This document shows positions 6,608-43,386 of a stretch of DNA of 64,000 bases, one piece after another. The notes under the pieces are model-generated. The model worked only from the letters and a program-made list of their open reading frames with translations. It did no database searches and was not told the DNA's origin. A program made the position numbers and the translations under genes. This DNA is from Paraspadella gotoi (Eukaryota > Animalia > Chaetognatha), in the NCBI GenBank assembly GCA_051294375.1, contig CM119263.1:30926053-30990052 (forward strand), given 5' to 3'. Every line of letters begins with the position of its first letter. Positions within the stretch are counted from its first letter, which is position 1.

Positions 6608-6881
6608 TAACAAGAACTGTAATTCCAATTTGTTGCGCCATAATGACTTTATTTTTACATGTATTGTACATGTTACATGATATGGCATGACTAAAAAAAT
6701 TTCTTTGCCCGTGTATTTATGACATGCACTGCATCAAAATTCCGTCTTTTTTTCCTTATATTTTTAGGAATTTCTGAAGGCGGCACAAACAGTCTCTTAG
6801 ATTTGAGGTTTTTTTCTGTCTTAACTTATGCATTTTTAACGTAAGTGGGATGGGCCGACCGACCAAAAAGTGACTTATAGA
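6608..6881 (-). mobile_element. Helentron-associated / DINE-1-like non-autonomous element (5'-truncated copy)
   Basis: The reverse complement matches the copies at 15690, 32975, 50395 and 60243 (gtcggtc tract, gccgccttcag, gcatgtcataaatacac, 3' ggcgcaac...ttcttgtt). Confidence 0.6.
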
Positions 6882-13207: not shown

Positions 13208-14217
13208 GATTAATGAGGCGCGTTAGAAAAAATTAGCCATAATTCTGCTACTTAAAACCAACTCGACAGAACAGAGCCAAATCTTTCCTTTCTTTCTTTA
13301 TATACCTCATCAGGTTTTCAAAGAAACACTGATCATTTTTAGTTAAACTTAATTTTAATTTTAGTCATAATCTTAATTGTAAATCATTCTTCTTATCATG
13401 TGTCAGGTTTGAAAATCCGGTCGCCAATGAAATATTTGATCAGTTATCTTGCGAGAGGATTCAAATAAGTAATAGATCATTAAATGTTAAACTTGACTAC
13501 AATTTCTTTAATTAAAAATAAATGAAAAGTTGACCACCCCACAGGAATTATTTAATAACATAATTAGTTATTATTGTAAGAGAATCAATTTCTGTCAAAA
13601 AGTAAAAATCATAAAAATTCTCTCTTCCCAATTGGCAGAGCGGGTTATTGCTATGGGATAAAGTTCATGTATAAGCGAAAGAACAATACCAAAAATTGAA
13701 ATTTAAATCCTTTTTTACTAATGAGTCTCCCAAAAAAATGAAAGCAGTTACAAGGGAGGCGATGTTTAATGTCCACTCAAGATTTTAAAAAATTTGCTTC
13801 AAAAAATGTTGGATGCCAGAATTGAAGATCAAGGGCAGCTTTGCAGGATGTGAAAACGAATGCTAAAGAGAAAAAAAAGAAATTAATCTTACGTATTATC
13901 TTATTTCAGTCGAACAATGTTTAGAAAACTTAAAAATACGGGTTTAAAATTTAATTTTTTAAAAGGCTTTCTAGTACATGAATACTTTTGAATAGCAGGA
14001 ATAGAATAAGTCTTCCTTTCCGAGTAGGAGTTAACTGTTTAAAATTATATATAAATCTAAATTGTACATCAACAAACATTATTTCCGACGAAAAGGTATT
14101 TTATTAATACACTCATTGATTTAGTTACAAGTTTATTATTTTATTACAGATATTTGTTATTGTACATATCTTTTATTATGCTTTATTTAAAAATATTTTA
14201 CTCGCCTTCATCTGAGT

Positions 14218-14426
14218 TTAGTCCCATACTCGAATCTTGACGACGTGAGAAGAGAGTCGCCCAGTTCCTCGCCATCCGCCAACAACGAAGACGCTTCCAC
14301 CCGCATATGCTGCTCTGTGTTCCCAGATGCTGGTTTCGCCTTCCTGAGTCGGAAGTTCGTCCCTTTCGCTCCAATCCTTGGTTTCCAAGTCGAAAAGCCA
14401 AGTCTCGCCCTCCACCACTATAGTTC
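14218..14426 (-). CDS. Terminal Kelch exon (end of blade 5, blade 6, stop) of the KLHDC1/2-like propeller
   Basis: Acceptor ttatacAG (14428-14427), phase 1. Translates GTIVVEGETWLFDLETKDWSE...IWEHRAAYAGGSVFVVGGWRGTGRLSSHVVKIRVWD*. AATAAA-type signals follow at ~14130-14190. Confidence 0.85.
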
Positions 14427-14772
14427 CTGTATAAGTACATCCTTGATTGCATTGGCCAATTAAAAGGGTCCAACTAATAACGAAGTAGTTGTGGTGGTAG
14501 AACTTAAAGACAAATCCCTAGAGACGATCCTTACCCATGTCTCAATGGCTGAGCGGGATAAATTGACTTAACTCTGCATCCCATGTTCAGAATTTGTGTA
14601 CCGACTGTAATGTGTATATGTCTTAGATCTTTTGAGACAGGCGATCACTGATTGTTTGCAACTCTGCAGTCCTTCGTCTCCAAGGAATCACAGGCAATCC
14701 TATCCTTGCCATTCTGTTTATTTCTTACGTTTTTATTGTAGTTCTGCATTTACTTTCTAACTGTTTCATTAC

Positions 14773-14921
14773 CTCCCCAGCCGCCGACGAGAAAGAGTTG
14801 TCGCTGACTTATGGCGGTCAGACTCACGCTGTCGCGGGGAGAAGGCTTAACCGCTGAGACAACGATTTCTGTCCACGAAGGAGACTTCATGTCGAAGCAC
14901 CAGAGGTCGTCGAGGCGACCT
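14773..14921 (-). CDS. Kelch exon (not in the ORF track)
   Basis: Acceptor ttctttaaAG (phase 2) and donor GTAATG (phase 1). Translates GRLDDLWCFDMKSPSWTEIVVSAVKPSPRDSVSLTAISQRQLFLVGGWG. Both phases match the neighbouring exons. Confidence 0.88.
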
Positions 14922-15060
14922 CTTTAAAGAAAAAGGGTTTAATTTATTAAATTATATATGGAAAACAGTTATAAATACTATTACTTCCTTTAACAATTGG
15001 TAATTTTGTCATGTTTGAGATAAAAATATTTTTATATTCTAATCCCTTCAGTAATCCTAC

Positions 15061-15412
15061 TTGTCCCAAACTCCGCCAAAGACGTAAGCCTTCGCCTTCA
15101 CCGCCGCGCATCCTGTCTTGTATCTCGGTTTTGGTCTTGGTCCCTCAGTGGAGACATCCGCCCATCGCTTTGTTGAAGGCGAAAAGCGGACGAGTTGATT
15201 GGTGCGACCGTCAGAGTCTCTTTCGCCGCCTTCAAGGTCCGACGGGGACGGATCATCACCCCAACCGCCGAAGAAGTAACAGTCTCTTCGGTCCGCACAG
15301 AGGCTCGAATTATAAGCACCACCCTGCAAAATTCCCTAACTCCTCATTCGCCCTGCCAATCAAGTAGTCCGTCCACGAGCTCATGAACCATCTTCCACTC
15401 GGCTTTGGCCAT
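15061..15412 (-). CDS. Kelch exon(s), blades 3-4; 5' boundary unresolved
   Basis: GGAYNSSLCADRRDCYFFGGWG...RWADVSTEGPRPKPRYKTGCAAVKAKAYVFGGVWDK ends at donor GTAGGA (15060, phase 2). The upstream AKAEWKMVHEL is in another frame with an in-frame TGA, so a small intron (ttttgcAG acceptor near 15324) or an indel is required. Confidence 0.75.
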
Positions 15413-15687
15413 TGGCACAAAAGTCGTTTCCAACGTCGTGGCGAACAACAAAATATTATTTTTTAGCAACAATAACAATTTTTAAATAAAATATTTTTAT
15501 ATGATTTTATTTTTTCTCATTACTGCATACCGTCATACAATACTTGACTTGGTTTTCAGTTGGTGAAGATTGTTTCGTCAGCATGGGGTTATTATATGGT
15601 TACACTCACTCTCTCTCTCTTTCTCTCTCTTATTAGTTCAGATTCGTTTCACTATCTCCACCTTTTCGCATCTCTGTTTCTGTATTT

Positions 15688-15950
15688 AAATTTGCGCCGC
15701 GAGTACTCGCGGAGCAGCTCTATAATTCACTTTTAGGTCGCTCGGTCGGTATGTCTGTCCGTCGGTCTGTCCCGCTTGCGTTAAAAATGCTCATAACTCG
15801 CTCATTTGTTAAGACGGGAAAAAACTTCAAATCAAAGTGACTTCTAGCGCCGCCTTCAGGAAATCCTCCAACTACAAAGAATAAAAGGCTATTTCCGATG
15901 CATGCGTGTCATAAATACACAGGCACGCATTAGAAGGACCGATCATCGTT
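15688..15950 (+). mobile_element. Helentron-associated / DINE-1-like element inside a Kelch intron
   Basis: 5' ttgcgccgcgagtactcgcggagc contains a 16-bp perfect palindrome (15697-15712), followed by a GTCY tract (gtcggtatgtctgtccgtcggtctgtc). The body is shared with the other copies. Confidence 0.65.
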
Positions 15951-16005
15951 CTATAACCAATTGAAATCAACTTTACTCAAATCTTTTAACAAAGATCTTT
16001 TATAC

Positions 16006-16330
16006 CTTTCATAAGAGTAGATCTCATTTCTTTCTTTCCCTCCATCGTATCCTCCAAACAAATACAGCAGACCACCGTCCATCCCGGGCGGAACGTCGCC
16101 CTCAGTCTCGTCCACCGACCAAGAGTGAGACTCGGGATGAAGTCGCCACACTAATTCAGGGAAGAGGCTTTCGCCTTCTCCCACTCCGCTGAAGACGTGG
16201 ATCTGATCGTCCAGACTCACGACGACGGGACATTCGGAGCCGGGAAATGAGGCCTCGGGATTCGTGGCGGAGAAATTGGGGATCAGAGTCATGGGCAGAG
16301 GAGAAGGGAGAGAGATGGAGGGAGGGAGAT
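16006..16330 (-). CDS. Kelch exon, blades 1-2, spliceable in frame to the NACHT exon
   Basis: Strong acceptor ttttctcttttctAG (16332-16331), phase 1. Translates (H)LPPSISLPSPLPMTL...DDQIHVFSGV...WSVDETEGDVPPGMDGGLLYLFGGYDGGKERNEIYSYE. TEGDVPP-x-M and LYLFGG recall KLHDC1/2. Probable donor AG/GTATAA at 16005. Confidence 0.8.
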
Positions 16331-16722
16331 CTAGAAAAGAGAAAAGTTCGTTTGCTAATTTTGTTTACTTAAAATCATACTCATGAAATCTATGAAATTG
16401 GTACAACCAATATGTGTTTAACCAATATCGTCATAATCTATTTCTACTTTGTTTTGTTTCATTATTTAACTTACTGAGTAAAATCTGTTTTAAAATATTT
16501 TATCCTTAAAAGTTTTAACAATTGTCTAAGACGAAATGATTCTTATGTCTAGAAAAAAAAATTGGCTGGCGATGCTAAGTTTTTTCCCCAAGTTTTGCAC
16601 ATTAAAAAAAGTCAATGATTTATTTTCTAATCATAAGGCAAAATTGATATTTTTATTGGTATTATATACTAAAAACATTGTAATGCGCTCTTGCACGGTT
16701 AAAAGAGTACATGATAACTTAC

Positions 16723-19105
16723 GGCTTTTTGAAACTTTTGGTGCTTTTCCAACGAGAACTTTGGATTCGCGAGTTGCATGCTTTTCCCTTATAAACCATC
16801 CAAGGTTGGGAAAACATATATAAATATAATCATTTGAGTTACAAAACAAATCCTTGATCACAAAAAGAGATTTTTCTGGCCAACTTGCCGTGAACTTTGC
16901 AACTTGAAGTAGCCTTTCCAGCTTCTTCATGAGTCTTTCGGGTAGTTTGCAGTAGGAGCAGTTCGGATTGTTATAGTGGAACAGTAAATAGTCCAACAAA
17001 TGTTCATTCAAATGTTTTTTTAGCATCTTGGCCTCTCGTGTGTTAACATGCTTAATTTCTTTCTTTATGCAGTGGAATAATTGAAGAACTTCCGATTTAA
17101 ATTTCGGTAGCTTAATGCCTAACTCCAATACATTGGCAGATATTTGAGACAGTCGCCATTTTGTTACGTTTATCGTCGATCGAAAAGTGTGTTTGATGAA
17201 TCTGATTAAAGAAACGACTCGTTTGGCTGTCATCGTTTTGCTCTTGATGATCAAAGTCAAGATACATTGAAAAATTGAGATGGTCGAGTTTTGAATTTCT
17301 GTTGGAGTAGAAGGTAGAGGCAATGTGTCTTGATTGTTCATGAGAAACAGAGCGACAACGAATTCACGGATGTTTCGGTGATGAAATCGATAGAAAGAGT
17401 GAGTTGCTGCTCCATCAATCTGTACGCGTTCCATGATGCTGAGACGCAGCACAGTTTCAACTTCGTCTGGAGCCAAAGTTTTGTGTAGTTGCTCCCTCAA
17501 GTCCTTTTCAGAAAGATCTTTAAACCCAGCCGGAGAATTTCCATTACAAAAAAACACGGCCCCTCCAAGGCTGCTGAGTAATATCATGTTTTCATTGAGC
17601 AGCTCATTGATTCCTAATTGAGCCATTTTCTTTCTCTTGTTTTCCAGTGCTTGACTCTCTTTTTGTTCATCAATTATTTTGAAAGCATCAGATTTTAGGG
17701 ACAAAGTGAACAATCCTTTGTAAATGTCAGTTTCATCATTAAGATCTTTGCTGATGACGTCATCATCATACAATGTGCAGATTAATGTTGTGTACAGAGG
17801 AATACACATCAAACGTTTTACAAATGGATTATTCTGAAAAGCATCCAGGATACGTTTTTTCTTCGATCCCGCATCCAATTTATATGCATATTGTTGAATA
17901 AAATCTTCACATTGTTTTTCTGTAAGATCTTGAATTGTAAACTCCCAGAGGTTTGGTAGAATGTTATCAATAGCTTCCTTTCCTTCCAGTCTAGACAAAA
18001 AAATAAAGGAGCTCTCTGGATATGTCTCTTGAGAGTTTTTGATCCATTTGTTCAAGTTAAAATCACCTTCATCCAATCCATCCAAGACCCAAAGGATGTC
18101 TTTTTCATACTTGAATAGGATTGTATTCAATCTTGTTTTTTCTTCTGATGTCAACTGATTCAGGGATGGAAATTGCTTGAGCATGTTGTCACAGAGACTT
18201 TTGTTGGAATCGATATCCTTGACATCGAGTCTTATGACAAGACGAAACTTCTTAAGACAATCGCCCAATTCCCATTGTAGTACTAGTCGCTTGGAAGCTG
18301 TGGTTTTACCTCTTCCTCCGGCAGCAGTAATAATTATATTTTTTATGTCATTGTGTTCCAATGTAGTAACTTCATCAATCATTTTGACAAATTCTTTGAA
18401 AGTCATCGAAGAGCTTAATGCGGATTTTGCCTCATCATTATCGTCAGATTCAGAAGCATATTCATCCTCACTGCTGTCATATGATTCTTTCTCGTCATCG
18501 ATGCTGTCTTCAACATCACCTCGTTTTGCTCCATTGTGGGAATCTTCAGAATCTTTTTCAGAAACTCTTGCTTGATTCTGATATTCAGCATTTGAAGATT
18601 CGGTTTGAGGTTTTTCAACAGTGGGACTTATATTCTTAAAGTTTACTCCAATTTTTTTCTGCAGTAATGCTTCAGCTTCTGGTTGAGAAATGCCACCAAC
18701 ATAATTCTTTGATGACAAACTCACATTTATGTAAGTTCCCATGGTATCCAATGTGATATTTGTGCCAGCAACAGAATATCTGGTGTATTTGTTTTTGTAG
18801 TGTCTTTGTAGTAGATTGCTGGTATGTGCAAGTAATTCATCATCATTTAGTTTGTATGGGCGAGATAATTTTTCATGACTTTGCTTGTTATTCTCCCAAG
18901 CATCTAGGCGATCTAGTAATTGCGTTTGATTATCGTCTAATTTGTCCAATTTTGTTTTGATTTTTTCTTGCGACTCTTCAACATAATCCCTGAAGGAGGC
19001 AATGATTTTGGAAATATTTGCCTCTATCTGCTCTAGGTTATGCAAAGGTCCACTTTTGATATCCTCTAAGCAGTTCAACCAGTAGTCTCGCTCTCTCTCT
19101 CTCAT
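16723..19105 (-). CDS. NACHT (STAND) NTPase exon of an NLR-like protein: helical/coiled region, acidic linker, NACHT, HD1/WHD, helical tail
   Basis: Walker A IIITAAGGRGKTT (~18330-18300), Walker B ILWVLDGLDE (~18097-18068), sensor-1 FIFLSR, LMCIPLY (GxP-equivalent) and WHD FYRFHHRNIREFVVA. A consensus donor C/GTAAGT lies at 16722; unspliced, the ORF reads on to a stop at 16631. Confidence 0.93.
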
Positions 19106-19532
19106 CTAGCAGTTGGTTGCAAATCATCTTCAATTCATCGAACTCTGATTGAAATCGAGTCGCGTCCAATTCCAGTTTTGTTCCATGAGCCAAATTGTTT
19201 CTTTTGTTTTTCAACTGCTCAACGATTGGTCTCTTGTCAAGAGCAAAAAACCCAATGACATAAAAAAGTAACTTGAGTTCACAATCGGCAAAGACTGGAA
19301 CTTCTTTGTCCAAATAAGTCGTTTTTGGTTGAGACGCAAAAAATCTGTATTTCTTTACAATGTTGTGATTCTCGTAACACCATCTGTTCCAATGTTTATC
19401 TTCAAAAGGCTCATTGTATTTCTCTTGAAGCTTTAATTGATAAAATCCTTTCACCATATTTGGTCCGAATTGAAAAATGGCGAAGCAAAAGCGAAACCAT
19501 CTCTTCTCATCCTCTGTGTAACTTTTATACAT
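19091..19532 (-). CDS. DZIP3/hRUL138-type HEPN domain (putative endoribonuclease effector), N-terminal to the NACHT
   Basis: The Rx4H motif RNNLAH (19202-19185) sits in the context DCELKLLFYVI...VEQLKNKRNNLAH...RFQSEFDELKMICNQL, typical of animal DZIP3-like HEPN domains. ATG is in an AAAAATG context. The frame is offset from the NACHT within (GA)6G at 19103-19091. Confidence 0.82.
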
Positions 19533-20069
19533 TTTTGTGGTAAGTGGTATTCATAAACGATAATAACCCTTTTCAAAGATTGGATGTTTTAGTAGTTAAT
19601 ATGAACTATTACAAAATCACGATTCACTCAGCTTTTAAAAAACTGTATTAAAGATTGGATCAATACGGATTTATATTAAAAATTAATACACATTACCATT
19701 AATTTTTCTAATTCTACCAACTACGTTACAAACGTTGCTAGGGTTTTCCGAATTTAAAACTTAAAAAAAATATATGTACGATATCCAAATCAGCTTGTTC
19801 CATCGCGAAAGGAAATAGAAATGGTATTTAAAATTATTTAACATTTAAGTAAACACTTTTCAGTTTTCTGTTTTTTCTTCCCCTTCAAAAAACGCCCCTT
19901 GCTGAGTCACGCTCGATATCTTTAAATTTTTTCGGTGTTGAATTCAAAAGTCAATTTGAATCAAGATAAGAGTTTTTGAAACTCAGGTTCTTTACTTTCA
20001 AATATATGTGAACCAACTCGAGTCTTTACGCTCACGGAGATATTAGTGATATTATGAGTAATACTCAAA

Positions 20070-21600
20070 AACCCTAATGGTCAAGGTGTGGAAGGAGGCG
20101 AGGAGGGAGACCCGCGGCCTGCCCCTCCAAGTCCTATTCAGCAGATTCGCGGAAAGACTGTCGACGGTGACGCACTCGTGGCAAGCAATGGGCCCGATGT
20201 GCGAGACAGCATTGGCAAAACTGGAAGGTGCGATGTGGAAAATCATGAGAGGGATTCACGGGAACGGCCTCCCGACATGGTTCGTACACCTCCCTGCGAG
20301 GTTCCTAGGGTTGGGGCTCCCGAGCCTCAGGGAAATCACCATAATCGGTGGAATCAGGTCGGCGAGCTTGCTCCTAAGCCTGACGACCCCCATCAGGGGA
20401 CAGGACAGCCCCTTGGGACAAATACTCAAAGACTTCACTTCCTACGCCTTGGAGGTAGCGCGGCCAAGGATTAGCGGAATCGCCTCAGCAAAGAAGTGCC
20501 CGGAGACATCGACTTACCTGGCGGTCGAGTACCAAAACATGGGGCGGGTGATCCCCCTCTCCACCCTGAAAGGAGTAGGGCCCATCACCCTCCCGAAGCT
20601 AAGAGCAAAGGCGGCAGACTCCCAATACAACGGGGTCCTGTCCTGCCTCGCCACGGTGGGAGCGCGAGTCTAGAAAGGGGCAATAGTCTTCAAAGGGAAA
20701 AAGCCCTGCAGGGTGACCTTGATCCCCGATGTGGTCAAAGCGGCCAAGAAGGGGCTACGGGAAGTGGACCCCGACAACAAGAGCGCGGGCCACCATACCC
20801 CAGCGACCATGAGCTCAACGATGGTGGACAACGCCAAGCAGGGAAAAACATGTCTGTGGAACAAGACCCTAAAGACACCCAGAGGGATCCACGACCTATT
20901 GGAGGCGAAGCTAATCTTGGTCGCGGGAGCCAATAACCAAATAGCGGGGAACTACAGAAAAGCTAGTGTCAACAGGGGCAAGCCCCATCAACCTTGGAAG
21001 GTGTGCAACGCGTGCGGAGCCAGGACCCCGGCAGTCTTGGTCCTGAACCACGTGTACCTGGGCCCCCTTAGCAAGGGGGGTTCTGCCCGGCAACGAGAAG
21101 CCTGGTCATAAGGAAACACGACAAACTGACCAGGGAATACACGGATTCCTTTGCAGAGAAGAATGCGGAAAAGAGGGGAACCTTCCTTGAAATACCCAGT
21201 TCAACGAACCTGCAAAGAACAAAAGACCGGCCCCTCCTACAACAAAGAGTAGGAGCAAAACCGACGGACAAAAGGGTGGATGCAGTTGCGATCCAAGGAA
21301 TAGAAGCATTTGCCTTCGAGGCCTCGGTAACCACCAAGAGCGCGCACACGGCCCTCAAGAGCCAACAGCTGCACGCATACGCAGTGGACCTGGAAAAGGC
21401 CTTGGGGATCCACCCGAGGGGGTGGCCGCCGCAGGTCGTCTGGAGGAAGATGGGGCCGGATGAGATCCTGGATGCACCACCCCACTCGGGTGAGGCGAGG
21501 TCACCATGGCTCTCGCCCATGCCAAGAGTGGAACAGTCATTGACCGGCGCTTCAGAGAGGCAATGAAAGCAAGGAAGGAGGCTATCCAAGCCTTCATCAA
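20070..21600 (+). mobile_element. 5'-truncated, disrupted non-LTR retrotransposon of an RLE clade (R2/CRE/NeSL/Hero-like): RT thumb, zinc knuckle, restriction-like endonuclease
   Basis: HLPARFLGLGLPSL (thumb GGLG-like), CNACGARTPAVLVLNHV (CCHC-like knuckle), RKHDKL (RHD-like) and KRVDAV...FEASV (PD..D/E-like). Stops and frameshifts are present. Confidence 0.75.
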
Positions 21601-21781
21601 GTCGTCTTCAGGGTGGCCAAGGATAAAAGAGCCAAGAGGAGAAAGCAGCTCTTCTGCGCAACCCAGCCGGAGATAGTGACCAGGCCCAGGGCTAAACCCC
21701 TGGCCCGAGACCTTGGCCTAGCATGGCCAGCAGCTAACCTGGATGGTCCGAGAGACCCTGGAATTCTGACTGTAAAGGAGT

Positions 21782-22685
21782 GGCGTGGATGACCTCCTTC
21801 CTTGCTTTCACTGCCCCTCTAAAGCACCGGACGATGACTGTTCTGCTCTTGGTGTGGGCGAGGGCCATGGTGACCTCGCCTCCTGCAAGTGGGGTGGTGC
21901 GTCATAGGATCTCATCCAGCCCCGTCTTCCTCCAGACAACCTGTAGCGGCCACCCCCTCAGGGAGATCCCTGAGGCCTTTTCTAGGTCCACTGCGTACGC
22001 GTGCAGCTGTTGGCTCTTGAGGGCCATGTGAGCGCTCTTGGTCGTTACCGAGGCCTTGAAGGCGAATGCTTATTCTTTGGATCGTGACTGCATCCACCCT
22101 CTTGTCCGTTGGTTTTGCTCCTACTCTTTGGTGTAGGAGGGGCCGGTCTTTTGTTCTTTGGCAGGTTCGTCGAACTGGGTACTTCGAGGAAGGTTCTTGG
22201 GAATCCCCTCTTTTCCGCATTCTTCTCCACAAAGAAATCCGCGTATGCCCTGGTCAGCTCGTCGTGTCTCCTTATGACCAGGCTTCTCATTGCCGGGCAG
22301 ACCGCCCCCCTTGCTAGGGGGGCCCGCGCACACGTGGTTCAGGACCAAGACTGCCGGGGTCCTGGCTCCGCACGCGTTGCACTCCTTCTTCCAAGGTTGA
22401 TGAGGCTTGCCCCTGTCGACACTAGCTTTTCTGTAGTTCCCCGCTAACGTTTGGTTCTTGGCTCCCGCGACCAAGATTAGCTTTGCCTCCAGGAGGTGGT
22501 GGATCTCTCTGGGTGTCTTTAGGGTCTTGTTTTTCCCTGCTTGGCGTTGTCCACTATCGTTGAGCTCATGGTCGCCGGGGTATGGTGGGCCGCGCTCCTG
22601 TTGTCGGGGTCCGCTTCCCGTAGCCTCTTCTTGGCCGCTTTGACCACGTCGGGGATCAAGGTCACTCTGCGTGGCTTTTTCCCTT
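21782..22685 (-). mobile_element. Second, inverted fragment of the same RLE retrotransposon
   Basis: The reverse complement aligns with 20693-21592. Encodes ECNACGARTPAVLVLNHVCAG, IRRHDEL and KRVDAV. Confidence 0.8.
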
Positions 22686-23504
22686 AGTGCTTAATTTTCG
22701 GGAGAAAATATTTACTTTCTTTATTTTTTATTTTAAAATTTAAGAAAAATTTTTTATAGAGAATGGACTCGTCTTGAACTCAAAAGAGGTAGGCGTCAAC
22801 TGGAGTCTCTTGGTGGGCGTGGCAGCGTCAATTCGAGTAGGCGTGGCAGCGTCATTTCCGGTGGGCGTAAATGCGTTAGAGTGAATGAAGACGGAGGGAG
22901 AGAGAATTTCCTTTTAGTCATTAACCTTCTGGAGTACTTGCTAAGATTTGGAGTCAGAATGTTTAACTTAAAACTGAATATTTAAAAATATTTACAGGCT
23001 ACAGGCTACACAATAATATAAAGAACAAACATGCAGGTCACGTCGAAACAGCATGTATCTCTTGTCAAAAAAATTGTTCGGACTAAATATTTATTAATTT
23101 AATATTTTTATTTGATATATTTGACGGAGTTGGCATTAAATTTTGGAAAATCAAAGGCGGGGTCGAAGTGTCGAATGTGGGAGCCTCCAAGGGCCCGTCA
23201 ATTCGGGATCAAAGTTCACAAAGGGCATCGGTGGGTCGACGGCTGAGGGCGTGCCCGTTGGGGCACCAAAGGATACAAAGGGCGTTTCGGGGTCGATGAG
23301 CCAGAGCGGCATCGATGCCGGCGCCCCTCTGGGAGATTTGACCTTCGTCGTGGCGATAAGGAGGTTAAGAGGGAGAGAGGGAGACAGAGAGAGAGAGGAG
23401 GAGAGGGAGAGAGAGGAAAAGAGGAATGTGAATGAGGAAAAAATGAAGAAGAAAAATAAAAAGGAAAACAGGTAAAGAAAAAAGAGGATTTATATTGTAG
23501 AATT

Positions 23505-24045: not shown

Positions 24046-24156
24046 TTATTTTTCTCCCTCTCTCTCTCGGTATAAGTGTCTCTGCCCCTCTTTCTCTCCC
24101 ATTCTCTCTCTCTGTCTCTACCTCTTTTCTCTATTCTGTTTCGCTCTCTCTCTCTG

Positions 24157-24189
<33 letters not shown>

Positions 24190-24779
24190 GTCTCTCTGGC
24201 TGCGTTTTCAGTGCAACAAGCGAAATGTCTAAATGTTTATTTTAACAAAAAACGTGGCTCCATGGGAGAAAATTTAATAGAGAGAGAGAGAGAGAGAGAG
24301 AGAAGGGGGAAGAGAGAGAGAGACAGAGACAGAGAGGGGGAAAAGAATTCCCCAAAGTGTGACTTATTTTAAAAAGGAAGCTTTGCTGCTGAAAGGATAG
24401 CGATAGAGTATTAAAAAAAGAGAGAGAGCGATAGAGATAGAGAAAGAGAGATAGAGAGAGAGGGAACGATAGAGAGAATTCGTTTGAATGTAATCTTACG
24501 CTTAAATGAACTTCTTATTTATCTATGAAATTTTATTATACAAAACGATAAGACTCAAGACAATATAATTATAATTACTAATATCTTTTAAATAAGTTTT
24601 ATTCCTTTTAATAAATTGTACGTATTCGAATTACATTTACCGCTTGGTCGCCTCCGGTTCGATTGATTGGTTTCCTTTTTGCTTCATTGCTTGATTTCTC
24701 GGTTGCTTGCCTGCTTGGCGCCATTTCCCGAACTTAAAGAAAAAAATTCCATTTTTCAAAATCCACTTTTCTTTACCTT

Positions 24780-25600
24780 TACCTCTCTTCTTTCTTGACT
24801 TTATTTTTTTCTTTCCTTTTTTCCTTCTTTCCTTTTTTCCTTATTTCCTATTTTCCTTCTTTGCTTTCTTCTATCTTTTCTTTCTTCCCTCTTTTCTTTT
24901 TTCCTTTCTTCTATCTTTTCTTTTTCCTTATTTCCTTTTTTCCTTCTTTACTTTCTTCTATTTTTTTCTTTCTTCCCTTTTTCCTTTTTTCCTTCTTTCC
25001 TTTTTTTCTTCTTTCCTTTTTTCCTTCTTTCCTTTTTTCTTTATTTCCTTATTTCCTTTTTTCTTTTTTGCTTTCTTCTATCTTTTCTTTCTTCCCTCTT
25101 TCCTTTTTTCTTTTTTCCTTTCTTCTATCTTTTCTTATTCCTTATTTCCTTTTTTCCTTCTTTACTTTCTTGTATCTTTTCTTTCTTCCCTTTTTCCTTT
25201 TTTCCTTTTTTCCTTCTTTCATTTTTTCCTTCTTTTCTTTCTTTTATCTTTCCTTTTTCCTGTTTCCTTTTTTCCTTCTTTCCTTTCTTCTACTATCTGT
25301 TCTTTTTTCCTTATTTCCTTTTTTTTTACTTTCTTGTATCTTTTCTTTCTTCCGTCTTTCCTTTTTTCCTTTTTTCCTTCTTTCCTTTTTTCCCTCTTTC
25401 CTTTCCTCCTTTTTCCTCCGCTTGCCTTTTTTTTCTTCTCCTTAATTTCCTTTCCTCCTTTTAATATTTTCCTCGCCGAAGATTTTATGTCCTCTTTTTC
25501 CCTTTTGTCCGACTTTTTATCGCTTTCTTTTCGCTCTTCCTCCTCCTCCTCTTCTTCTTCTTCTTCCTCCTCCTCCTCTTCTTCCTCCTCTTCTTAATTT
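24780..25600. repeat. Long polypyrimidine (C/T) low-complexity tract, duplicated at ~34570-35320
   Basis: Almost purine-free ttccttttt-type degenerate repeats. These are the source of the spurious Phe/Ser/Leu ORFs. Confidence 0.9.
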
Positions 25601-26326
25601 CCTATCTCTACTTTCGCTCTTGTTTTAAGAAGGAAGAGAAACGTCAACAATTGTGGTTTGCGGAATTTATAATAGAAGTTCCTAGTTTGTTTTAAAAATT
25701 AGACGATGGAAACTTCCAACAACAACAACGACGACAACAACAACAAAAAGAGAGGAAGTTGGCCTTATTTTCCCCGAGCGCTCTATTTCATATTAAATTT
25801 GGAATAAAATTAACCATGCATAATATACATTGTATATCCTTTGTTTTATTTTTCCTTCGATTTTCGAAAGGCGGCGCCGCAACCGCAAGGTCGGCGACTC
25901 TACGGTGCTCGGGAAATTCCCGCCGTGCTCGAGAGTCTGCAGTGCCCGAGTTTAAAGTCGCCCGCTTTCTTCGCTTATCTTTGTCACCGACAAAATCGAA
26001 GGCAGCAGCAGCAGAGACGGAGGCAGCAGCATTAGAAGCAGCCGACGCGAAGATTCAGGAGACTGGAAAGTTTGGGAAGAAAACAGGATGTGAGGAAAAC
26101 AGACTGAAGAAAGATCGAAAGAGAGAAAGAAAGAAAGATTGAAAGAAAGAAAGATAGAAAAAAGAAAGAAAGAAAGAATGAGATGATGGGAAATAAATAT
26201 CGACCTCCAACTGATCCTAGAACAGAAGACTTAATAGCAGAGAGAGAGAAAGAGAGAGAGAGAGAAAAAGATAGAAGATAGAGAGAAAAAACGAGAGAGG
26301 AGAGAGAGAGAGAGAGAGAGGAGAGA

Positions 26327-26370
<44 letters not shown>

Positions 26371-27992
26371 ATGACGACGACCTCGCCAAACAAATAATTT
26401 AAGCGCAACAAAACCTCGATTGACTTCGGACAGATTTTGCTCTTCCGCCATTTTGCTTTTTCTGGTTTTTTGCTTTTTTTGCCTTTTGCTTATGCAGAAT
26501 ATCAAATTATTAATATTTTTATCTTTTTTACACAAATATCATGCGTTCCCTGAATCATTTAGTTACTTATCTAATGAAATCGGTACCAGCAATATAAACG
26601 TTATCTATTCATTGAATAAATAAGCTATGACTTTGGACAGACCTCGATTCAGGCAAGAATTTAATATTTTTTTACAATATGAAACAGTCTGCAATAAAAT
26701 TCTTGTCCTTTTTCAACCAAATTGACTTATGATTTTAGATTTTGATTATATTCATTTTCCTTACGTATGGAAGCATTTTAATATTTAACAATTAATAAGA
26801 AATGCTTAAAAAATTTATATTTTTAAAAATAAGTTAGATAAAGGTTAGTATTACAAATTTCAAAAAATTTAATGATAAATAAGTTAAAATTGGAAAAAAA
26901 ATTTAAAAATTATCATCATCATCATCATTCAATAAATTTGATAGTTTTTTAATTTTCATAAACAAATCATTAAAATTTCAAAAAGTTGTAGTAATAAGCT
27001 TCATCTAACTTTTTAAGCTTTATCAGAATCCGATAAAAAATATTAAAATTTACTAAAAAATTTTTTGGACATTATATAGTAATTGGATAATATAAAATAA
27101 TATTATAATAATATTATAATAATATTAATAATAATAATATTAATATAATAATAATATTATAATATAATATTTTCACAATCTTTAATAAACACATTACCAA
27201 TATTTATACCGGACTTCAGGTAGTTTGTAACCTGTTCCGCTTGAGCCTCCACCCCTCTTTCATTTATTTACTCATGTATACATGATTTTAATAGTTTTAT
27301 TCATTCATACGTTTATTCATTCAACAATGTAATGCTGAATCCTAAACCCAATTTTTTAGCAATTTAGGACAATTATTAATGATAAAAAAATTTTGTTTGT
27401 TTACAGTTATGACGTCATCCATGTCGGAAAAAAAACATTTCTACGAAAAAATAAAAATGATGGAAAAATATTTGTACTAAGCCTAAGCTAAGGAGAAAGA
27501 ATTAAAACTGGAACAAAAAACGAAGAACAAAACGAAAATAAAATAAGAAAAAGAAAATAAAAGAACAAAAAGAAAAAAAATATGAAACGAAAATATTAAT
27601 TTTGCTGAAAAATTAATGAAACGAAGTTGAAAATGAAAAAGATAATGAAGTCTAATGAAAAGAACAACGACAACAACGACAACAACGACAACAACGACAA
27701 CAACGACAACAACGACAACAACGACAACAACGACAACGAAAAAGCAAAAGGAATAAAAAATTAAAAATCGAGTTTTTTCTGCTGTAGTTAGAATAAAGTG
27801 ATGGAGTTAGTTCAACAAACCTACAGTGATGGAGACAAACTTTACCTCGAAACATCCTCCTTTCTCCATCAAATCTGTTGCGTTGACCTGCATCAAATGC
27901 TGCAGTGAACCAACTCCAATGCTGTAGCAAACGGCATCTATTGCAGAGATCCACCTGCATTGCATCAGGCAGAATCCACGATGACTTCACCA

Positions 27993-28052
27993 ATGGCCAA
28001 CGCATCCTTTTTCCTCGTTTTTTTGACGCTGATGCACCTGTTATCACCTGCA

Positions 28053-28087
<35 letters not shown>

Positions 28088-28384
28088 GCGACAAGAATCG
28101 TTATCATTGTCCGCCCCCGAGGCGTTAGCGTTGGAGTCAGCGCCGGCGGCTGCCGCGTCGGGGGCGGAGGCAGCGGCATCGTTTAAAACGTCGGTTTCCT
28201 CGTCGGCTTTGTCGTCTCCGCAGTCGGCTATGGCGGCCAGAATGTCGGCTGCGAGTGCAGTGGAGGCGGCGGCGTCAGCGGCGGCGCCGGGCGGCGCGGC
28301 GGTGACATGCAAAAACTTTGTCGGTGGAAGAAGAGATAAAGTATCAGTTGCAGACGCACTTTGATGTTGCGCCGGTTAAATCAG
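27993..28384 (+). CDS. Candidate first coding exon with signal peptide and Thr/Ala-rich ectodomain, possibly of the downstream GPCR; duplicate at 42846-43234
   Basis: MANASFFLVFLTLMHLLSPA then poly-T, RRQESLSLSAPEALALESAPAAAASG. It ends at donor CAG/GTGAGA (28385). The frame near the 3' end is disrupted and the indels differ between the two copies. Confidence 0.45.
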
Positions 28385-28386
28385 GT

Positions 28387-28450
<64 letters not shown>

Positions 28451-28521
28451 GAGAGAGAGTGTGTAAACCTAGTAGTATATACTAAATCGATTGTGGAAAT
28501 AGGGAGGACAAAGGAAAGAAT

Positions 28522-28557
<36 letters not shown>

Positions 28558-28581
28558 GAGAAGAGAGAGAGAGAGAGAGAG

Positions 28582-28615
<34 letters not shown>

Positions 28616-29148
28616 AAAAAAATCCATTGAGATGTGCGCCAATTTTAAGGTGGAGAAAAGAAGTTGACAGGAAAATGTGATAATTCGAGGTGTGAAAAGA
28701 AAAGAGAAGAAGATGAAGATAGAGGTAGAGGATAGAGAAAAAGGATAGGTAACAGAGGGGAGAAGAGGAGGAAGAGGATAGAGGAAAAGGATAGGTAAAA
28801 GAGAGGAGAAGAGAAGATAGAGGAAGAGGAGGATAGAGGAAAAGGATAGAGGAAAAGGATAGGTAAGAGAGAGAAGAAGAGGGGATAGAGGAAGAGGATA
28901 GAGGAAAAGGACGGAAGGAAGAAGAAAAGAAGCGGTAGAGGGAGTAAGTTGAGAGACATGTTGAAAGAAAGGAAGAAGGTAAGGTACGTGACTTACTCAA
29001 AGTAATAGGATCATTGATAGGAATTTGAGCGTTGTTAAGTTCAAATTTGGTCATTTTAAAACATCTGAATTTTGGAAAAGTGAAGAGATGAAGAGGACGT
29101 GAAATGTGGAAAAGTGAGTGAAAGAGGGAAGGTGATTTCGAGTGAGTT

Positions 29149-29281
29149 AAAGCGAAGAGGGAAGTCAAAGTGAAGAGGTAAGTCAAAGCGAAGAGGTAAG
29201 TCAAAGCGAAGAGATAAATCAAAGCGAAGAGGTAAGTCAAAGCGAAGAGGTAAGTCAAAGTGAAGAGGTAAGTCAAAGTGA
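29149..29281. repeat. 18-bp tandem repeat aaag(c/t)gaagaggtaagtc; longer, noisier versions at ~43944-44235 and ~46311-46632
   Basis: Read directly; ~7 units in copy A. Confidence 0.9.
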
Positions 29282-29576
29282 AAAATCCGGGTGAAGTTTT
29301 TGAGGCCGCGATTCTCGACGGTTAATGGGGCGTGATGGTCGGAGAGGGACGGAGAGGGGATTTTGTGGGGAGGAATTGTGGGCGTTGTGGATATTGTGGA
29401 TAATGGATAAAAAGTGGATATAATGCGGAAGTGATTGTTGTGATTGTTAAGGATGAAAACTCCAAGGACTTGAACTCAGAGGTTAACATCGGTTTTAAAC
29501 CTGGAAAGGACTTTATTATGTTCCTTCGCTTGGACGACAACAGTTGAAAATTTTGATAGAATTCTTGAGACACGAT

Positions 29577-29699
29577 AACGATCGATCAATCAATCAATCA
29601 ATCGATCGATCGATCAATCAATCAATTAGTCAGTCAATCGATCAATAGATCAATTAATCGATCAATCAATTAATACATCAATGAATGAATGAAAGCATA

Positions 29700-29730
<31 letters not shown>

Positions 29731-29753
29731 CAATCAGTCAATCAATCAATCAA
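29577..29753. repeat. (ATCA)n/(ATCG)n compound tetranucleotide microsatellite, also at ~44530-44697 and ~46925-47097
   Basis: Read directly. Confidence 0.9.
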
Positions 29754-29989
29754 CAGAGGGATTTATCGTTACGAACGCCTGAAAATGATTGAGGCAGATT
29801 TAGTAACCAAGGGAATTGGTCATTGAGGCAAAGGATTTTCGTTGGATTAAACTCGCTTCATGCCGGCGGCGGAAGAGGAGGAGGAGGAGGAGGAGGCGGC
29901 GGCGNNNNNNNNNNNNNNNNNNNNNNNNNGCGGAGAGTCGGGGTCGGACAGAGAACTCTGTTGACGCTGAAATTGAGGAGGCGGGAGAG

Positions 29990-30040
<51 letters not shown>

Positions 30041-31231
30041 AGAGAGAGAGGAAGCTGGAGGTTAAAGGGTTAGAAGAAGGACACAAAGGAGGGAAGAAGC
30101 GGCAGCAGCAATAGCGGTTGCGGTGGCGGAGCTGCGGTGGCGGCGGCGGCGGCGGGAAATGAAGCCGATTTCTCCAATTGTTTATGATGCTATCGAAGAA
30201 GAGATTTTTTCGCGGAAGCGTCGATGCCGAAAATCCTTTGGTCATAAATGAGTGGAAGGAAAAAGGGATTTGAGTGAGGGAAGAGGAGGAAAAGGGATTT
30301 GGAGTAATAGGAAAAAGGGGATTTGGGGGAAAAGGATGAAACAAGGATTTTGGGGAAGAGGAGGAAAGAGATTTGGGGGAAGAAAAAGGGGATTTGGGGA
30401 GGAGAGAGGAGGAAAAGGGATTTGGGGGAAGAGGAAAGGCATTTGGGGGAAGAGGAGAAAAGGGGATTTGGGGAAGAGGAGGAAAATGGATTTGGGAGAA
30501 GAGGAATTATTAATTTAATTAAAGGGAAGAAATTTTAGGAAAAAAGAATATACGCAGATAAACATATATATATATATATATATGTAACTTATATAAATAC
30601 TTAGAAAAAGAAAGGCAGCAGCTTTAGAGTAAGTTCAAAAGCGAATCATCGAGAAACGATACTTACCTTTCCCGATTTCAGATCCTCTCGATCTTCCTTC
30701 ACGCCACCAGCGCCAATCTTTTCTTCACGGAACCAATCACAAAAACCGAGGACCAACGCACACATCAAACACCTGGCCAACACCACGTGGAAACAACACT
30801 GGAGCGATGGGAAAAAACCAATTCTACCTCAACAACGAAAACAACAACGACGATCGAGATCAGAATCATTACTTACCCGTCGATCACGTTATCGATCACG
30901 TGATTCTTCACGAAAATCGACGCTTTTTTTAATCACGTTAGTTTTTTGAAAAGTTTGAAGGAACATTTTATTTTTTCTTTTTTTGTTTTTTATAAATATT
31001 GACATTTTTTAAAAGATGAAATGAAATTATTTCATGGCAGGGGGGGGTTACGTAAAGTAATGAGAAGATTTAGGGGAAATTAATAATTTATTTATTTACC
31101 CGATTCTTACATTTTGCGTTTTAAAAATATCTTATTTATATTTCTGTATCGATTACTCGAGAAACGATACAGTCGGTGTTTCGAGGCAAGATGGCGTCTG
31201 CAAGCAAGCAGAGGGCACCAAGCTAACCTTA

Positions 31232-31268
<37 letters not shown>

Positions 31269-31443
31269 TCTTCTCTCTCTCTCTCTTTCTCTTCTCTCTC
31301 CTTCTCTCATCTCTCTCTGTTTTTTTTTTTCTCTCTCTCTCTCTCCCTCTCTTCTCTTCTCCAAGTTTACCTTCCCCCCCTCTCTCCCTCTTCTCATTTT
31401 CTCCACCCTCGTCTCTCTCTCTCTCCTCTCTTCTCTCTCTCTC

Positions 31444-31484
<41 letters not shown>

Positions 31485-31498
31485 CCTCCCTCTTACAG

Positions 31499-31579
31499 AC
31501 CCTCCCACCTCCCACTCCCCGCTCTTGTCGGTCGCCCCACGGGAGGCGGCAATCTATCTTCCGTTGACTCCAATAACAG
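31499..31579 (+). pseudogene. Duplicate of the GPCR N-terminal exon (48842-48921) carrying one extra G
   Basis: Same ctcttacAG acceptor and AG/GTAAAT donor, but 81 nt versus 80 nt (cacgggaggc versus cacggaggc). May be a consensus error. Confidence 0.55.
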
Positions 31580-31615
31580 GTAAATAGGTTGGGCGGAAAG
31601 AGAGAGGATGAGGAT

Positions 31616-31670
<55 letters not shown>

Positions 31671-32974
31671 AGAGAGAGGAAGGAGAGGGGAGAGAAGGAG
31701 GGAGGAGAAGAGAGAGAGAGAGAGAGAGAGGAAGGAGAGGAAGAGCAGAGGATTTAGGAAAAAGAAAAAGAGAGGATATATAAGGATATAAAGTAAGAGA
31801 TTTTAATTTTAAGAATTTTTAGAGAAATACTCATTCCTTTCTCGTTCACCACGTGACTTACCTTTTATCTACGATTCTCACTTTTTCTCTATTCGTCTTA
31901 AGACAATAAACAGTTTTCACGCTTGAGTTAAACCGAAGTTTTCTTTTCTGAGAAATAAAAGGATGACTTAACCGTCGGAGTAAAAAGGGGTCAAGGGAGA
32001 GCAGAGAAGAGAGAGAGAGAGAGAGAGAGGAGAGAAGATAGAGAGAGAGAGAGAGAGAGGAAGAGAGATGTTTTTGGGCAGGTGCGAGATTTAAGCAAAA
32101 TAAGTTTTTGAAGATGAATGGCAGAAGGGCAAAGAAGATATAGATTAAGAGCAGAAAGGTAGAAAATAAAAAATTAAGGGCAAAGAGATAAAAATATAGA
32201 GCAATAAGGTGCAAAGAGGATGAAAATTAAGGGCAAAAGGGTAAGGAAGATGAATTAAGGGCAAAAAGGGCAAAGTAAGAAAAAAATTAAGGGCAAAGAA
32301 GATTAAAATTAAGGAAAGCAAAGCGGGCTGAGAGAAAAATGAGAAGAAAAAAATAATCGAAATCGACAAAAAAGAGGAAAAAAAGAAAAGAAAATGAAAA
32401 AAAAAGAGAAAAAAAGAAAAAAAAGGAGCGCTAGAAATGTGAAGATGAAAAACGAAGATAGAACGAAACGCTTCCTGAAAAAAAGAGCAAAAATGGAAAA
32501 GTGAATAAAAAAAGTAGAAAAAGGGAAAACATAGAAATATGTGAATGAAAAAATGGCAAAAAAGAAAGAAAAATGAAAAAAAGAGAATAAAAAAATGGAG
32601 AAAGTATTAAAAAAAGAGAAAAGCGGGAAAAAGGGAAAAAGGGAAGAAAAAATGGAAAAAATGGAAAAAAATGAGAAAAATTGGAAATCGAGAAGAGGAA
32701 AAAGAAAAAGGAAGAAGAAAAAGAAAGAAATTGAGAATATTTTCTTTTTTTTTTCTGAATATGAATTCATTTGAATTCAAATTCGTTTAACTTTGATTTC
32801 GTTTTTCATGAGAATTTCACGAGTTTTGGATTTTTTTTATTATCTTCGTTTTCAGCCATCCGAATTCGAAGAATTTTAAATGCGTTTGTAACTTTGTTAC
32901 CCAAAGAAGTTGGAAAATTGATAGCAATAAATAAAAAATTAATGATATGATTAGTGTTAATTGTTAAGCAATTC

Positions 32975-33318
32975 GTTGTGAGTACTCGCGGAGCACTCTA
33001 GAGGACACTTTTCGGTCGTCTTGTCGGTCAGTCATATAATATAATATAATGCATATAATTTGCCTATAGTTAGTTGCTCATTGTTAAACAGAAAAAAACC
33101 TTAAATCTAAGGGACTTGCTAGCGCCGCCTTCAGGAATCCTTTAAAACTATAAGGTAAATAAAAGACGAAATTTTGATGCAGTGCATGTCTAAATACACG
33201 GGGAAAAAAGTTTTTAGTTCATGTCAATCACGTCATGTCATTCATTATACATATTATATGATCAAGGCGAAAATACACGTGAAAAATAAAGTCACTGCCG
33301 GCGCAACGCATTCCTTTT
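32975..33318 (+). mobile_element. Helentron-associated / DINE-1-like element, duplicate at ~50395-50738
   Basis: gagtactcgcggagc...ttttcggtc...gcgccgccttcagg...aataaagtcactgc(c)ggcgcaacgcattc. Confidence 0.65.
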
Positions 33319-33461
33319 TCATTATTTTGTTTGCCAGTATTCGATTCATGGACGAATCATTTTTCAAGTCAGTCGTAGAGTAAAAATGAACACAGAAAAT
33401 TTAGATGTGTAGTCGGGCATTGCATTGTTCCCCCGCCTATAAGCATGACACCTTCAGTCGT

Positions 33462-33672
33462 GACCCGTTTGCTCATTGAGTAAGGACATCAGCTATACAG
33501 TAGTACCGGGTCCAATCCCAACCCTGTAACTATCGGTAAGCGTGAGGATGTCGTAAGCCGCCTCTGGGGCGTGGAAAACCCTCAAACCTGTTCCAAGCCC
33601 AGGTACCCGTTCCATGGCTGCTGAGAGGGCATAGAACGATAAAGATAGTAGTCTCAGCCCACTTATCGCCAA
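33462..33672 (+). mobile_element. tRNA-derived SINE-like element, duplicate at 50883-51102
   Basis: The head gacccgtttgctcattgagtaaggacatcagct...ccgggtccaatccc has an A-box-like TGCTCATTGAGTA and a B-box-like GGTCCAATCCC at tRNA spacing. A non-tRNA body follows. Confidence 0.55.
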
Positions 33673-33957
33673 TCAGAGAGAGAGAGGAAGCTGGAGGTTA
33701 AAGGGTTAGAAGAAGGACACAAAGGAGGAAGAAGCGGCAGCAGCAATAGCGGCTGCGGTGGCGGAGCTGGCGGTGGCGGCGGCGGCGGCGGGAAAATGAA
33801 GCCGTTTTCTCCCAATTGTTTATGATGCGATACGAAGAAGAGATTTTTTCGCGGAAGCGTCGATGNNNNNNNNNNNNNNNNNNNNNNNNNCCCAGACGCC
33901 GCCGCTTACCTCTTTTCTCTATTCTGTTCGCATCTCCTCTCTCTCTGCTCTCTCTCT

Positions 33958-33988
<31 letters not shown>

Positions 33989-34076
33989 GGCTGCGTTTTC
34001 AGTGCAACAAGCGAAATGTCCTAAATGTTTATTTAACAAAAAACGTGGCTCCATGGAGAAATTTAAATAGATGAGA

Positions 34077-34130
<54 letters not shown>

Positions 34131-35581: not shown

Positions 35582-35827
35582 TGATGCAGGATTGTTACTG
35601 CACGAGGGTTTGAACAGAGAATTGTTTACTTCAAACGATAAAATTAATAACAATAACAATTGATACTAGTCTAAACAATGAGACATATAAGGTTCAAATA
35701 CGAAAGCGGTAAATCATGTGAGAGAGAGAGAGAGAGAGAAGAACGAGAAGACGCCTGAGAGAGAGAGAGAGAGAGTCTTAAATAAGTTTGTCGATCGCAG
35801 CCAAGGTCACGTGTGGTTACTGCCACA
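35582..35827 (-). repeat. 3' LTR, preceded on the minus strand by polypurine tract GGTGGGGGATG (35838-35828)
   Basis: TG...CA termini; aligns with 40522-40755; contains a (GA)n tract. Confidence 0.9.
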
Positions 35828-40467: not shown

Positions 40468-40501
<34 letters not shown>

Positions 40502-40521
40502 TAACGTCGTGGCTTACCACG

Positions 40522-40646
40522 TGTGGCAGGAGTTGTTACTGCACGAGGTTGAATCGAGAATGGTTTTCTCCCGTTAATAACAATACAATTGATACTAAGT
40601 CTAAACAATGAGAAACATAAGGTCATACGAAAGCGTGAAATCATGT

Positions 40647-40706
<60 letters not shown>

Positions 40707-40755
40707 TTCTTAATAAGTTGGTCGATCGCAGAAGTCACGTGTGGTTACTGCCACA
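40522..40755 (-). repeat. 5' LTR, followed on the minus strand by a PBS-like TGGTAAGCCACGACGT (40519-40504)
   Basis: TGTGGCAG...CTGCCACA 8-bp inverted termini. The PBS resembles the tRNA-Trp type TGGTGACCCCGACGT with mismatches. Confidence 0.88.
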
Positions 40756-42905: not shown

Positions 42906-42940
<35 letters not shown>

Positions 42941-43241: not shown

Positions 43242-43295
<54 letters not shown>

Positions 43296-43355
43296 AGTGT
43301 GTGTAAACCTAGTAGTATATACTAATTCGATTGTGAAAATAGGGAGGCAAAGGAA

Positions 43356-43386
<31 letters not shown>

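Follow-up and report, generated by a model that had tools for sequence, protein, structure and literature searches.

A broken, probably decaying allele of an NLR-like gene with HEPN-like, NACHT and Kelch parts in the chaetognath Paraspadella gotoi

Does a 64,000-nucleotide (nt) stretch of the chaetognath Paraspadella gotoi (contig CM119263.1, here called the window) encode a receptor in which an RNA-cutting HEPN head, a NACHT switch and a Kelch sensor are joined in one protein, as a preliminary description made from its letters had proposed? On the minus strand of the window lie an open reading frame (ORF) of 164 amino acids (19532-19038), one of 824 amino acids (19105-16631) and four downstream pieces with Kelch matches; for head and NACHT module alike, the annotated proteins that resemble them most come from animals. 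Judged from the sequence, the intact form of the gene probably specified an RNase head of HEPN type, followed by NACHT as ATPase switch and by six Kelch blades that form a propeller, the predicted sensor. The allele in the window does not encode that protein: its HEPN-like and NACHT parts are frameshifted against each other, and a dead acceptor and an insert lie in its Kelch half. We consider it likely, with a probability of roughly 0.6, that the locus is a transcribed but broken and decaying allele of an NLR-like receptor gene, whose likeliest state is non-functional. The gene had been said to be hidden by an ORF list that splits it into pieces; introns do split it, and so do real lesions.

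The NACHT ORF is as described. Pfam gives NACHT (PF05729) 41.4 bits against a cut-off of 26.7, with NB-ARC at 14.7 bits under its cut-off of 23.5, and Walker A (AAGGRGKTT, 18325-18299, its first Gly changed to Ala, likewise in several relatives), Walker B (WVLDGLDE, 18091-18068), sensor 1 (IFLSR) and the winged helix (RFHHRNIREF, 17389-17360) are all found. The module runs from a helical or coiled-coil start through an acidic linker, the NACHT domain and the winged helix to a C-terminal CxxC..WP domain, and the chance of a 794-codon open frame is about 4e-26. Its best solved match is NLRC4 (E 1.9e-5); a structure model of it was too poor to use (predicted local distance difference test score, pLDDT, 38). 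The C-terminal domain, of about 110 residues (16723-16960) and marked by CxxC and WP, is kept across the clade described below and has no Pfam match.

Did this module continue into the Kelch exons? The donor at 16722 and the acceptor at 16331, both in phase 1, join it in frame to a Pro-rich linker and Kelch across a 392-nt intron, just as had been claimed. Relatives were sought with a profile made from the NACHT ORF and one word-index match (the word-index searches gave 1, 2 and 2 matches), which was searched over 1.84 billion representatives; 150 matches were listed, with 19 proteins at E up to 1e-30, and the 20 top matches are metagenome or Logan proteins except for one starfish NACHT protein. 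P0014, the only one of the 150 listed with Kelch in the same ORF as NACHT (Pfam PF24681, 176 bits), is a protein of 1,332 amino acids in one ORF on a 4,273-nt Logan contig, and consists of NACHT, the CxxC..WP domain, a Pro-rich linker (LPSLPCPLP against ISLPSPLP in the window) and a six-bladed propeller. Aligned with a model of the window protein that carries X at each break, it shows 27% identity over 1,101 columns (E 5e-99), with 39% in linker and Kelch and about 25% in NACHT, and the two propellers are collinear. A quick tree of 102 rows puts the window protein together with P0014 and seven others in a nine-member clade that has a Shimodaira-Hasegawa-like approximate likelihood ratio test (SH-aLRT) support of 99; 50 of the 151 candidate proteins, those with fewer than 150 residues of the core, were excluded, and members of the clade were picked by profile score, so the grouping is partly circular. 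In the 11 relatives that reach the C-terminal domain, similarity stops between window residues 766 and 804, a range that includes the donor (794), and 9 of the 11 end within 8-75 residues of the point that matches the donor, as expected of intron read-through in unspliced DNA. From these sequence comparisons, a NACHT-Kelch family with a fused Kelch propeller as likely sensor is well supported as real, and the proposed junction of NACHT with a six-blade Kelch is borne out by an intact homologue and, indirectly, by an RNA-like contig that ends at the donor. A metagenome scan gave 11 distant NACHT loci, none of which matches the Kelch or HEPN pieces of the window. PADLOC returned no match, and NCBIfam none of use.

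The nature of the head is a separate question. P0014 has a head that is not HEPN, and heads vary in the family. The head in the window had been described as a HEPN ORF with the motif RNNLAH, and this motif is present at residues 111-116 (19202-19185), giving the Rx4-6H pattern of DZIP3-like HEPN domains. HEPN_DZIP3 (PF18738) itself gave no Pfam match on the head at E up to 1, and two other HEPN profiles, HEPN_RiboL-PSP (E 0.0017) and HEPN_MAE_28990 (E 0.026), stayed under cut-off; of the three profiles named for such a check, NACHT and Kelch were thus matched and HEPN_DZIP3 was not. By Atlas features the head lies at 0.95 to DUF4559 and HEPN_DZIP3 clusters in which each family is on 11% of the members, and its nearest clusters overall carry PF18738 or DUF4559 on 11-38% of theirs, which is a lead only. 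A single-sequence structure model was all-helical, with a pLDDT of 46 that makes it too poor to use; Foldseek with this poor model gave nothing at E up to 0.001, and the pairwise comparison of the head with P0008 was not significant (E 0.31). In the text available of a study of oyster proteins, Asn after the Arg of Rx4H is the commonest form in DZIP3-type HEPNs (PMC9646362). The sequence of the head is probably that of a HEPN domain and, by analogy, the head probably acted as an RNA-cutting HEPN RNase.

Among the proteins collected, P0008 (L005:1332-5207) has HEPN and NACHT in one ORF that ends in a ZU5-like domain, and in P0007, likewise a single ORF, NACHT is preceded by a TIR-type head and four HEPN-like repeats; according to the accessible parts of two studies, invertebrates commonly encode HEPN and NACHT fused in a single ORF (PMC9646362, PMC8260672). 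Because the head shares an exon with NACHT, because of where the GA run discussed next is placed, and because HEPN-NACHT single ORFs such as P0008 and P0007 occur naturally, we infer from the sequence that this head was once fused to NACHT.

What, then, separates the two ORFs? Their frames are offset by 1, 68 nt are common to both, and no intron that joins them is seen in the contigs. Inside the overlap sits a (GA)6G run (19103-19091). The coding part of exon A (2.8 kb) has no other dinucleotide run of at least 4 units; the window as a whole holds 109 GA/TC runs of at least 6 units. A TAG closes the NACHT frame directly before 19105. The stretch was found in 9 of the 11 sequencing runs listed, none of them recorded as RNA, and three (X1, X6 and X7) were compared as contigs. 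The GA run has the same length, free of gaps, in all three (3 samples, 2 studies): the X1 contig, possibly from the source sample, is identical to the window over 16283-20100, and neither the X7 contig (19021-19430) nor the X6 contig (16723-19642), both from the other study, has a gap there. With 2-3 substitutions in NACHT against the window, X6 and X7 represent other haplotypes. Since it is gap-free in X1, X6 and X7, the frameshift is not an assembly error; its most likely origin is a slip of the GA microsatellite.

The Kelch half carries lesions of its own. Kelch matches were obtained in all four downstream pieces scanned, and with X at each break these give six blades with GG and W motifs (seven profile stretches, blade 3 being split by a loop). 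The six blades of the preliminary description therefore stand in that reading and not in the letters of the window alone, from which a TG acceptor and a 76-nt insert make them unreachable. The start of exon C that matches P0014 is 15445, preceded by TG instead of AG; an earlier choice, 15436 behind CG, was replaced after the P0014 alignment, and there is no AG either way. Of the 21 in-frame AGs in the stretch of intron 2 and exon C, 18 lead to a stop, and the 3 that remain open lie inside the exon and would delete the end of blade 2. X6 contigs run unspliced through intron 2 (16032-15408), and the TG acceptor region is the same in X6 and X7. The insert (15291-15366) consists of a 71-nt unit of a very high-copy tandem repeat plus a 5-nt CGGAC duplication and shifts the frame, and the N-terminal part of the ORF at 15335-15057 is insert, not Kelch; the insert junction is present in an X7 contig and absent from one X1 and one X6 contig. 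With the letters of the window as they are, no product made under five acceptor choices or under intron retention extends more than about 980 residues from ATG 19105, which is too short for a propeller. The allele can yield a 164-residue HEPN-like peptide and, only with a restart at 19105, a NACHT protein with fewer than two blades. Contigs end at 15448 (X1) and at 15437 (X1, X6), which suggests a second sequence at the acceptor. Other differences look, from the contig letters, like errors of the window: blade 2 is short by 21 nt at 16072-16074 against X7 and by 7 residues against P0014, and the contigs that cover 15889-15990 contradict several small indels of the window in that stretch. As to the repeat itself, arrays of the unit (15296-15366) are joined by short TA runs in contigs, and the copy here is flanked by a 5-nt target duplication; since it is a single unit inserted with such a duplication, the satellite unit seems mobile.

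Is the broken allele transcribed? The X6 contig over exon A, which matches the window with 2 substitutions and without gaps, runs from the acceptor 19643 exactly to the donor 16723; its ends carry 51 extra letters beyond the donor and 10 beyond the acceptor. The 51-nt tail would extend to 16280, and the next 31-mer, 16279-16309, is the start of an X1 contig; the start of exon B is a CT-rich repeat. Depth arithmetic leaves 16543-16722 without X6 cover. Record 9 of X6 links 14425 to 14772 over a GT-AG intron, with no gap in the record, a 53-nt X6 tail fits intron 3, and a 71-nt X6 head fits an exon C without the insert. Three bin depths of X6 (1.57, 7.40 and 5.79) come out exactly under the spliced model, which for the last of them includes a GC-AG intron in the 3′ untranslated region (UTR), and six length or depth checks fit in all; contig depth was not taken as expression level or copy number. 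We infer that X6 is spliced RNA, which supports, by that step, one transcript running from HEPN through NACHT to Kelch and makes it likely that the locus is transcribed. Record 9 had also been considered as the transcript of a paralogue, an idea that was dropped when the GC-AG intron of the 3′ UTR explained the record. The 10 extra letters at acceptor 19643 could belong to an upstream exon or to a trans-spliced leader.

Several points weigh against the view that this is a transcribed, decaying allele of a three-part receptor gene. X6 is labelled 'DNA?', and the splice 16723/16330 at the locus was deduced from lengths, the letters of the tail not being displayed. No HEPN head that matches the one in the window occurs among the 150 NACHT matches listed, and the three-part protein is nowhere seen intact. 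The stretch of the NACHT frame past the break had been considered as the last helix of HEPN and was dropped when a five-sequence HEPN profile did not score it above shuffles (189 of 300 scored as high). P0161 (832 amino acids) continues after the NACHT module into a second P-loop, STAND-like NTPase with a winged-helix-like end, and has no Kelch; because P0014 continues at this place into Kelch, P0161 into the second NTPase, and others stop there, the NACHT-Kelch fusion appears to be old and its junction modular. The frameshift is present and may not be fixed, as contigs can drop a second allele. Apart from the break, the HEPN and NACHT frames stay open for 142 and 794 codons, which is compatible with a break that is recent or with frames still in use. 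Finally, the insert-free contigs mean that a Kelch-intact haplotype or a close paralogue probably exists.

The last two points lead to the alternative that we take most seriously, although we think it rather unlikely, namely that some individuals have a working gene, or that the gene works some of the time, with length variation of the GA run, or slippage of the polymerase or the ribosome on it, serving as an on/off or dose switch on the RNase. The break does fall on a dinucleotide run between two frames that are otherwise open, insert-free Kelch contigs exist in X1 and X6, the contig ends at 15448 and 15437 hint at a second acceptor sequence, and by reasoning only a two-base slip on a GA run would keep codon-anticodon pairing. 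The run has the same length in 3 of 3 samples, however, no in-frame variant and no stimulatory element were seen in them, and all 3 substitutions found in NACHT change the residue, which gives no sign of constraint and is too few to test for it. A use of the messenger RNA as it stands, as a stand-alone HEPN-like protein with or without a separately started NACHT(-Kelch) protein from ATG 19105 that recruits it, we hold to be quite improbable. The HEPN-like ORF does retain Rx4H, and this ATG directly opens the NACHT frame after its stop, yet 11 ATGs lie upstream of 19105 in the transcript, and reinitiation is disfavoured since the NACHT frame starts within the HEPN ORF and shares 68 nt with it; a stop so far upstream of several exon junctions is, moreover, predicted to trigger nonsense-mediated decay. 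HEPN proteins without NACHT, for their part, are abundant in pearl oyster, according to the available part of PMC9646362.

Two further explanations would remove the fusion or the lesions altogether, and we give each very little credence. If the Kelch exons were a separate gene, with the NACHT join a young chance read-through, the CT-rich start of exon B would be a 5′ UTR before ATG 16292. This was prompted by a contrast in GC content at third codon positions (GC3), 0.37 in HEPN/NACHT (347 of 936 codons) against 0.58 in Kelch (181 of 310; p 6e-11), and agrees with the many contigs, 88-95% alike, that pile up on the Kelch exons and not on NACHT; it was rejected after P0014, in which the Pro-rich linker and the fusion recur at a NACHT identity of about 25%. 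That the breaks are assembly errors in an intact gene is hardly more credible. The window is noisy, with duplicated segments that differ by hundreds of gaps, and the indels at 15889-15990 are contradicted by contigs, but the frameshift is gap-free in three runs, the TG acceptor region recurs in X6 and X7, and the insert junction is found in X7.

How would intact members of the family work? In the STAND cycle a sensor binds its ligand, the NTPase swaps nucleotide and oligomerises, and the effectors cluster; HEPN RNases need paired domains. By likeness to the STAND family, a ligand on the Kelch propeller of intact members would release autoinhibition, nucleotide exchange and oligomerisation of NACHT would then cluster the N-terminal effectors, and paired HEPN domains would cleave RNA, so that the infected cell might be killed or silenced. 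The best solved matches of the P0014 propeller are KLHDC2 (E 1e-24) and KLHDC3 (E 1e-19), and from this likeness a peptide end is a reasonable guess for the ligand. KLHDC2 and KLHDC3, whose propellers likewise have six blades, bind peptide C-termini, and the accessible part of PMC11568203 treats them as ubiquitin-ligase receptors for C-terminal degrons.

To our knowledge the sensors of animal STAND and NLR proteins are LRR, WD40, TPR or ankyrin repeats, and the preliminary description knew of no characterised animal STAND receptor tipped with Kelch. The open literature, subscription papers and the pearl-oyster supplement not being covered, likewise yielded no animal NACHT-Kelch protein; the word 'kelch' is absent from the main texts, as far as available, of PMC9646362, PMC8260672 and PMC3710099, and from the supplements of PMC8260672, PMC12909245 and PMC4986451 (one file of the last not covered). 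Plant NLRs with an integrated Kelch do exist (PMC8832786, PMC4759884, both as partly available) and share with the window gene a C-terminal Kelch in a STAND immune receptor; those are NB-ARC-LRR proteins with a Kelch decoy, whereas in the window the NTPase is NACHT and Kelch replaces LRR, and the two kinds of fusion are likely to be independent in origin. Closer in layout are the invertebrate DZIP3/hRUL138-like HEPN-NACHT receptors, which have in common with our gene an N-terminal Rx4H (R-N) head, a central NACHT and C-terminal repeats. In the accessible portions of the three studies that describe them (PMC9646362, PMC8260672, PMC3710099), allelic decay and haplotype variety occur at such loci, as here, and the sensors are LRR, TPR or WD40 instead of Kelch. 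The window gene differs further in that its head is unmatched by HEPN_DZIP3, its NACHT belongs to a separate clade with the CxxC..WP domain, and this allele is frameshifted. With animal NLRs (NLRC4, NLRP3, NLRP14) it shares the NACHT fold motifs and not the LRR or a death-fold head; Pfam found no LRR in the window gene or in P0014, and the definition of a bona fide NLR by C-terminal LRRs, in the part of PMC3879445 available, excludes the gene, which we accordingly call NLR-like.

A Kelch-tipped NACHT family would add a sensor class with a rigid and well-understood peptide pocket, which makes ligand identity tractable, and P0014 provides an intact member for such work. Unless the GA run turns out to act as a switch, the allele in the window probably illustrates the usual birth-and-death turnover of immune genes. 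A broader picture, in which an animal lineage holds a whole NLR-like family with swappable heads and KLHDC-type Kelch sensors, perhaps for peptide ends left by pathogen proteases, and in which the GA run is a slippage switch or marks an on/off allele, is unlikely. The features of the locus are collected in the table.

Table. Parts of the HEPN-like, NACHT and Kelch locus in the window (positions in the window; introns given in the direction of the gene where noted so)
Feature	Position	Strand	Evidence
Exon A (5′ UTR, HEPN-like ORF, frame break, NACHT module)	16723..19642	-	X6 contig and splice sites; AG acceptor at 19643
HEPN-like ORF, 164 amino acids, RNNLAH at 19202-19185	19038..19532	-	HEPN profiles below cut-off, Atlas neighbours
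(GA)6G microsatellite at the HEPN/NACHT frame break	19091..19103	-	No gap in X1, X6, X7 contigs
NACHT module, 794 codons	16723..19105	-	Pfam, motifs, NLRC4 match, P0014 alignment
Intron 1, GT-AG, phase 1, 392 nt	16331..16722	-	X6 depth arithmetic; end of similarity in 11 relatives
Exon B: Pro-rich linker, Kelch blade 1, start of blade 2	16006..16330	-	34% to P0014, E 3e-17
Intron 2, holds repeat element 15692-15924, acceptor TG at 15447-15446	15446..16005	-	X6 retention; P0014 alignment
Exon C: end of blade 2, blade 3, start of blade 4	15061..15445	-	Start inferred from P0014 alignment
76-nt insert in blade 3	15291..15366	-	Contig comparison X1, X6, X7
Intron 3, GT-AG	15060-14922	-	53-nt X6 tail fits
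Exon D: end of blade 4, start of blade 5	14773..14921	-	51% to P0014; X6 record 9
Intron 4, GT-AG	14772-14427	-	Joined across in X6
Exon E: end of blade 5, blade 6, stop 14220-14218	14206..14426	-	X6 record 9
GC-AG intron in 3′ UTR	14205-13863	-	X6 bin depth
Inferred 3′ UTR exon (from depth; sequence piece not listed)	13546..13862	-	Predicted X6 bin depth 5.79, observed 5.79

Two further observations concern the relatives. Residues 69-92 of P0014 weakly resemble the winged-helix-like end of P0161 (E 0.004), and the N-termini of P0010, P0014, P0019 and P0009 hold Gln/Asn/Gly/Val-rich stretches, without a Pfam match, which by eye we take to recall RHIM-type amyloid motifs.

The window around the gene is eukaryotic in character, with many microsatellites and transposons, and its sequence is noisy. 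Multi-kilobase segments at 24119-33671 and 33907-51101 are 87-93% identical with hundreds of gaps, and may be either a tandem duplication or uncollapsed noisy reads. Directly upstream of the gene, at 20062-22690, lies what by eye is the decayed end of a retrotransposon without long terminal repeats (non-LTR; no Pfam match), which occurs as an inverted pair (20693-21592 and 22685-21782) that is 88% alike; a GC-rich, frameshifted remnant resembling an LTR retrotransposon, also recognised by eye and with no Pfam match, lies on the minus strand at 36000-40500. The element in intron 2 (15692-15924) is a short dispersed repeat with GACA/GACC tracts, presumably Helentron- or HINE-like, of which copies lie near 6706-6863, 33076-33238, 50401-50661 and 60372-60446.

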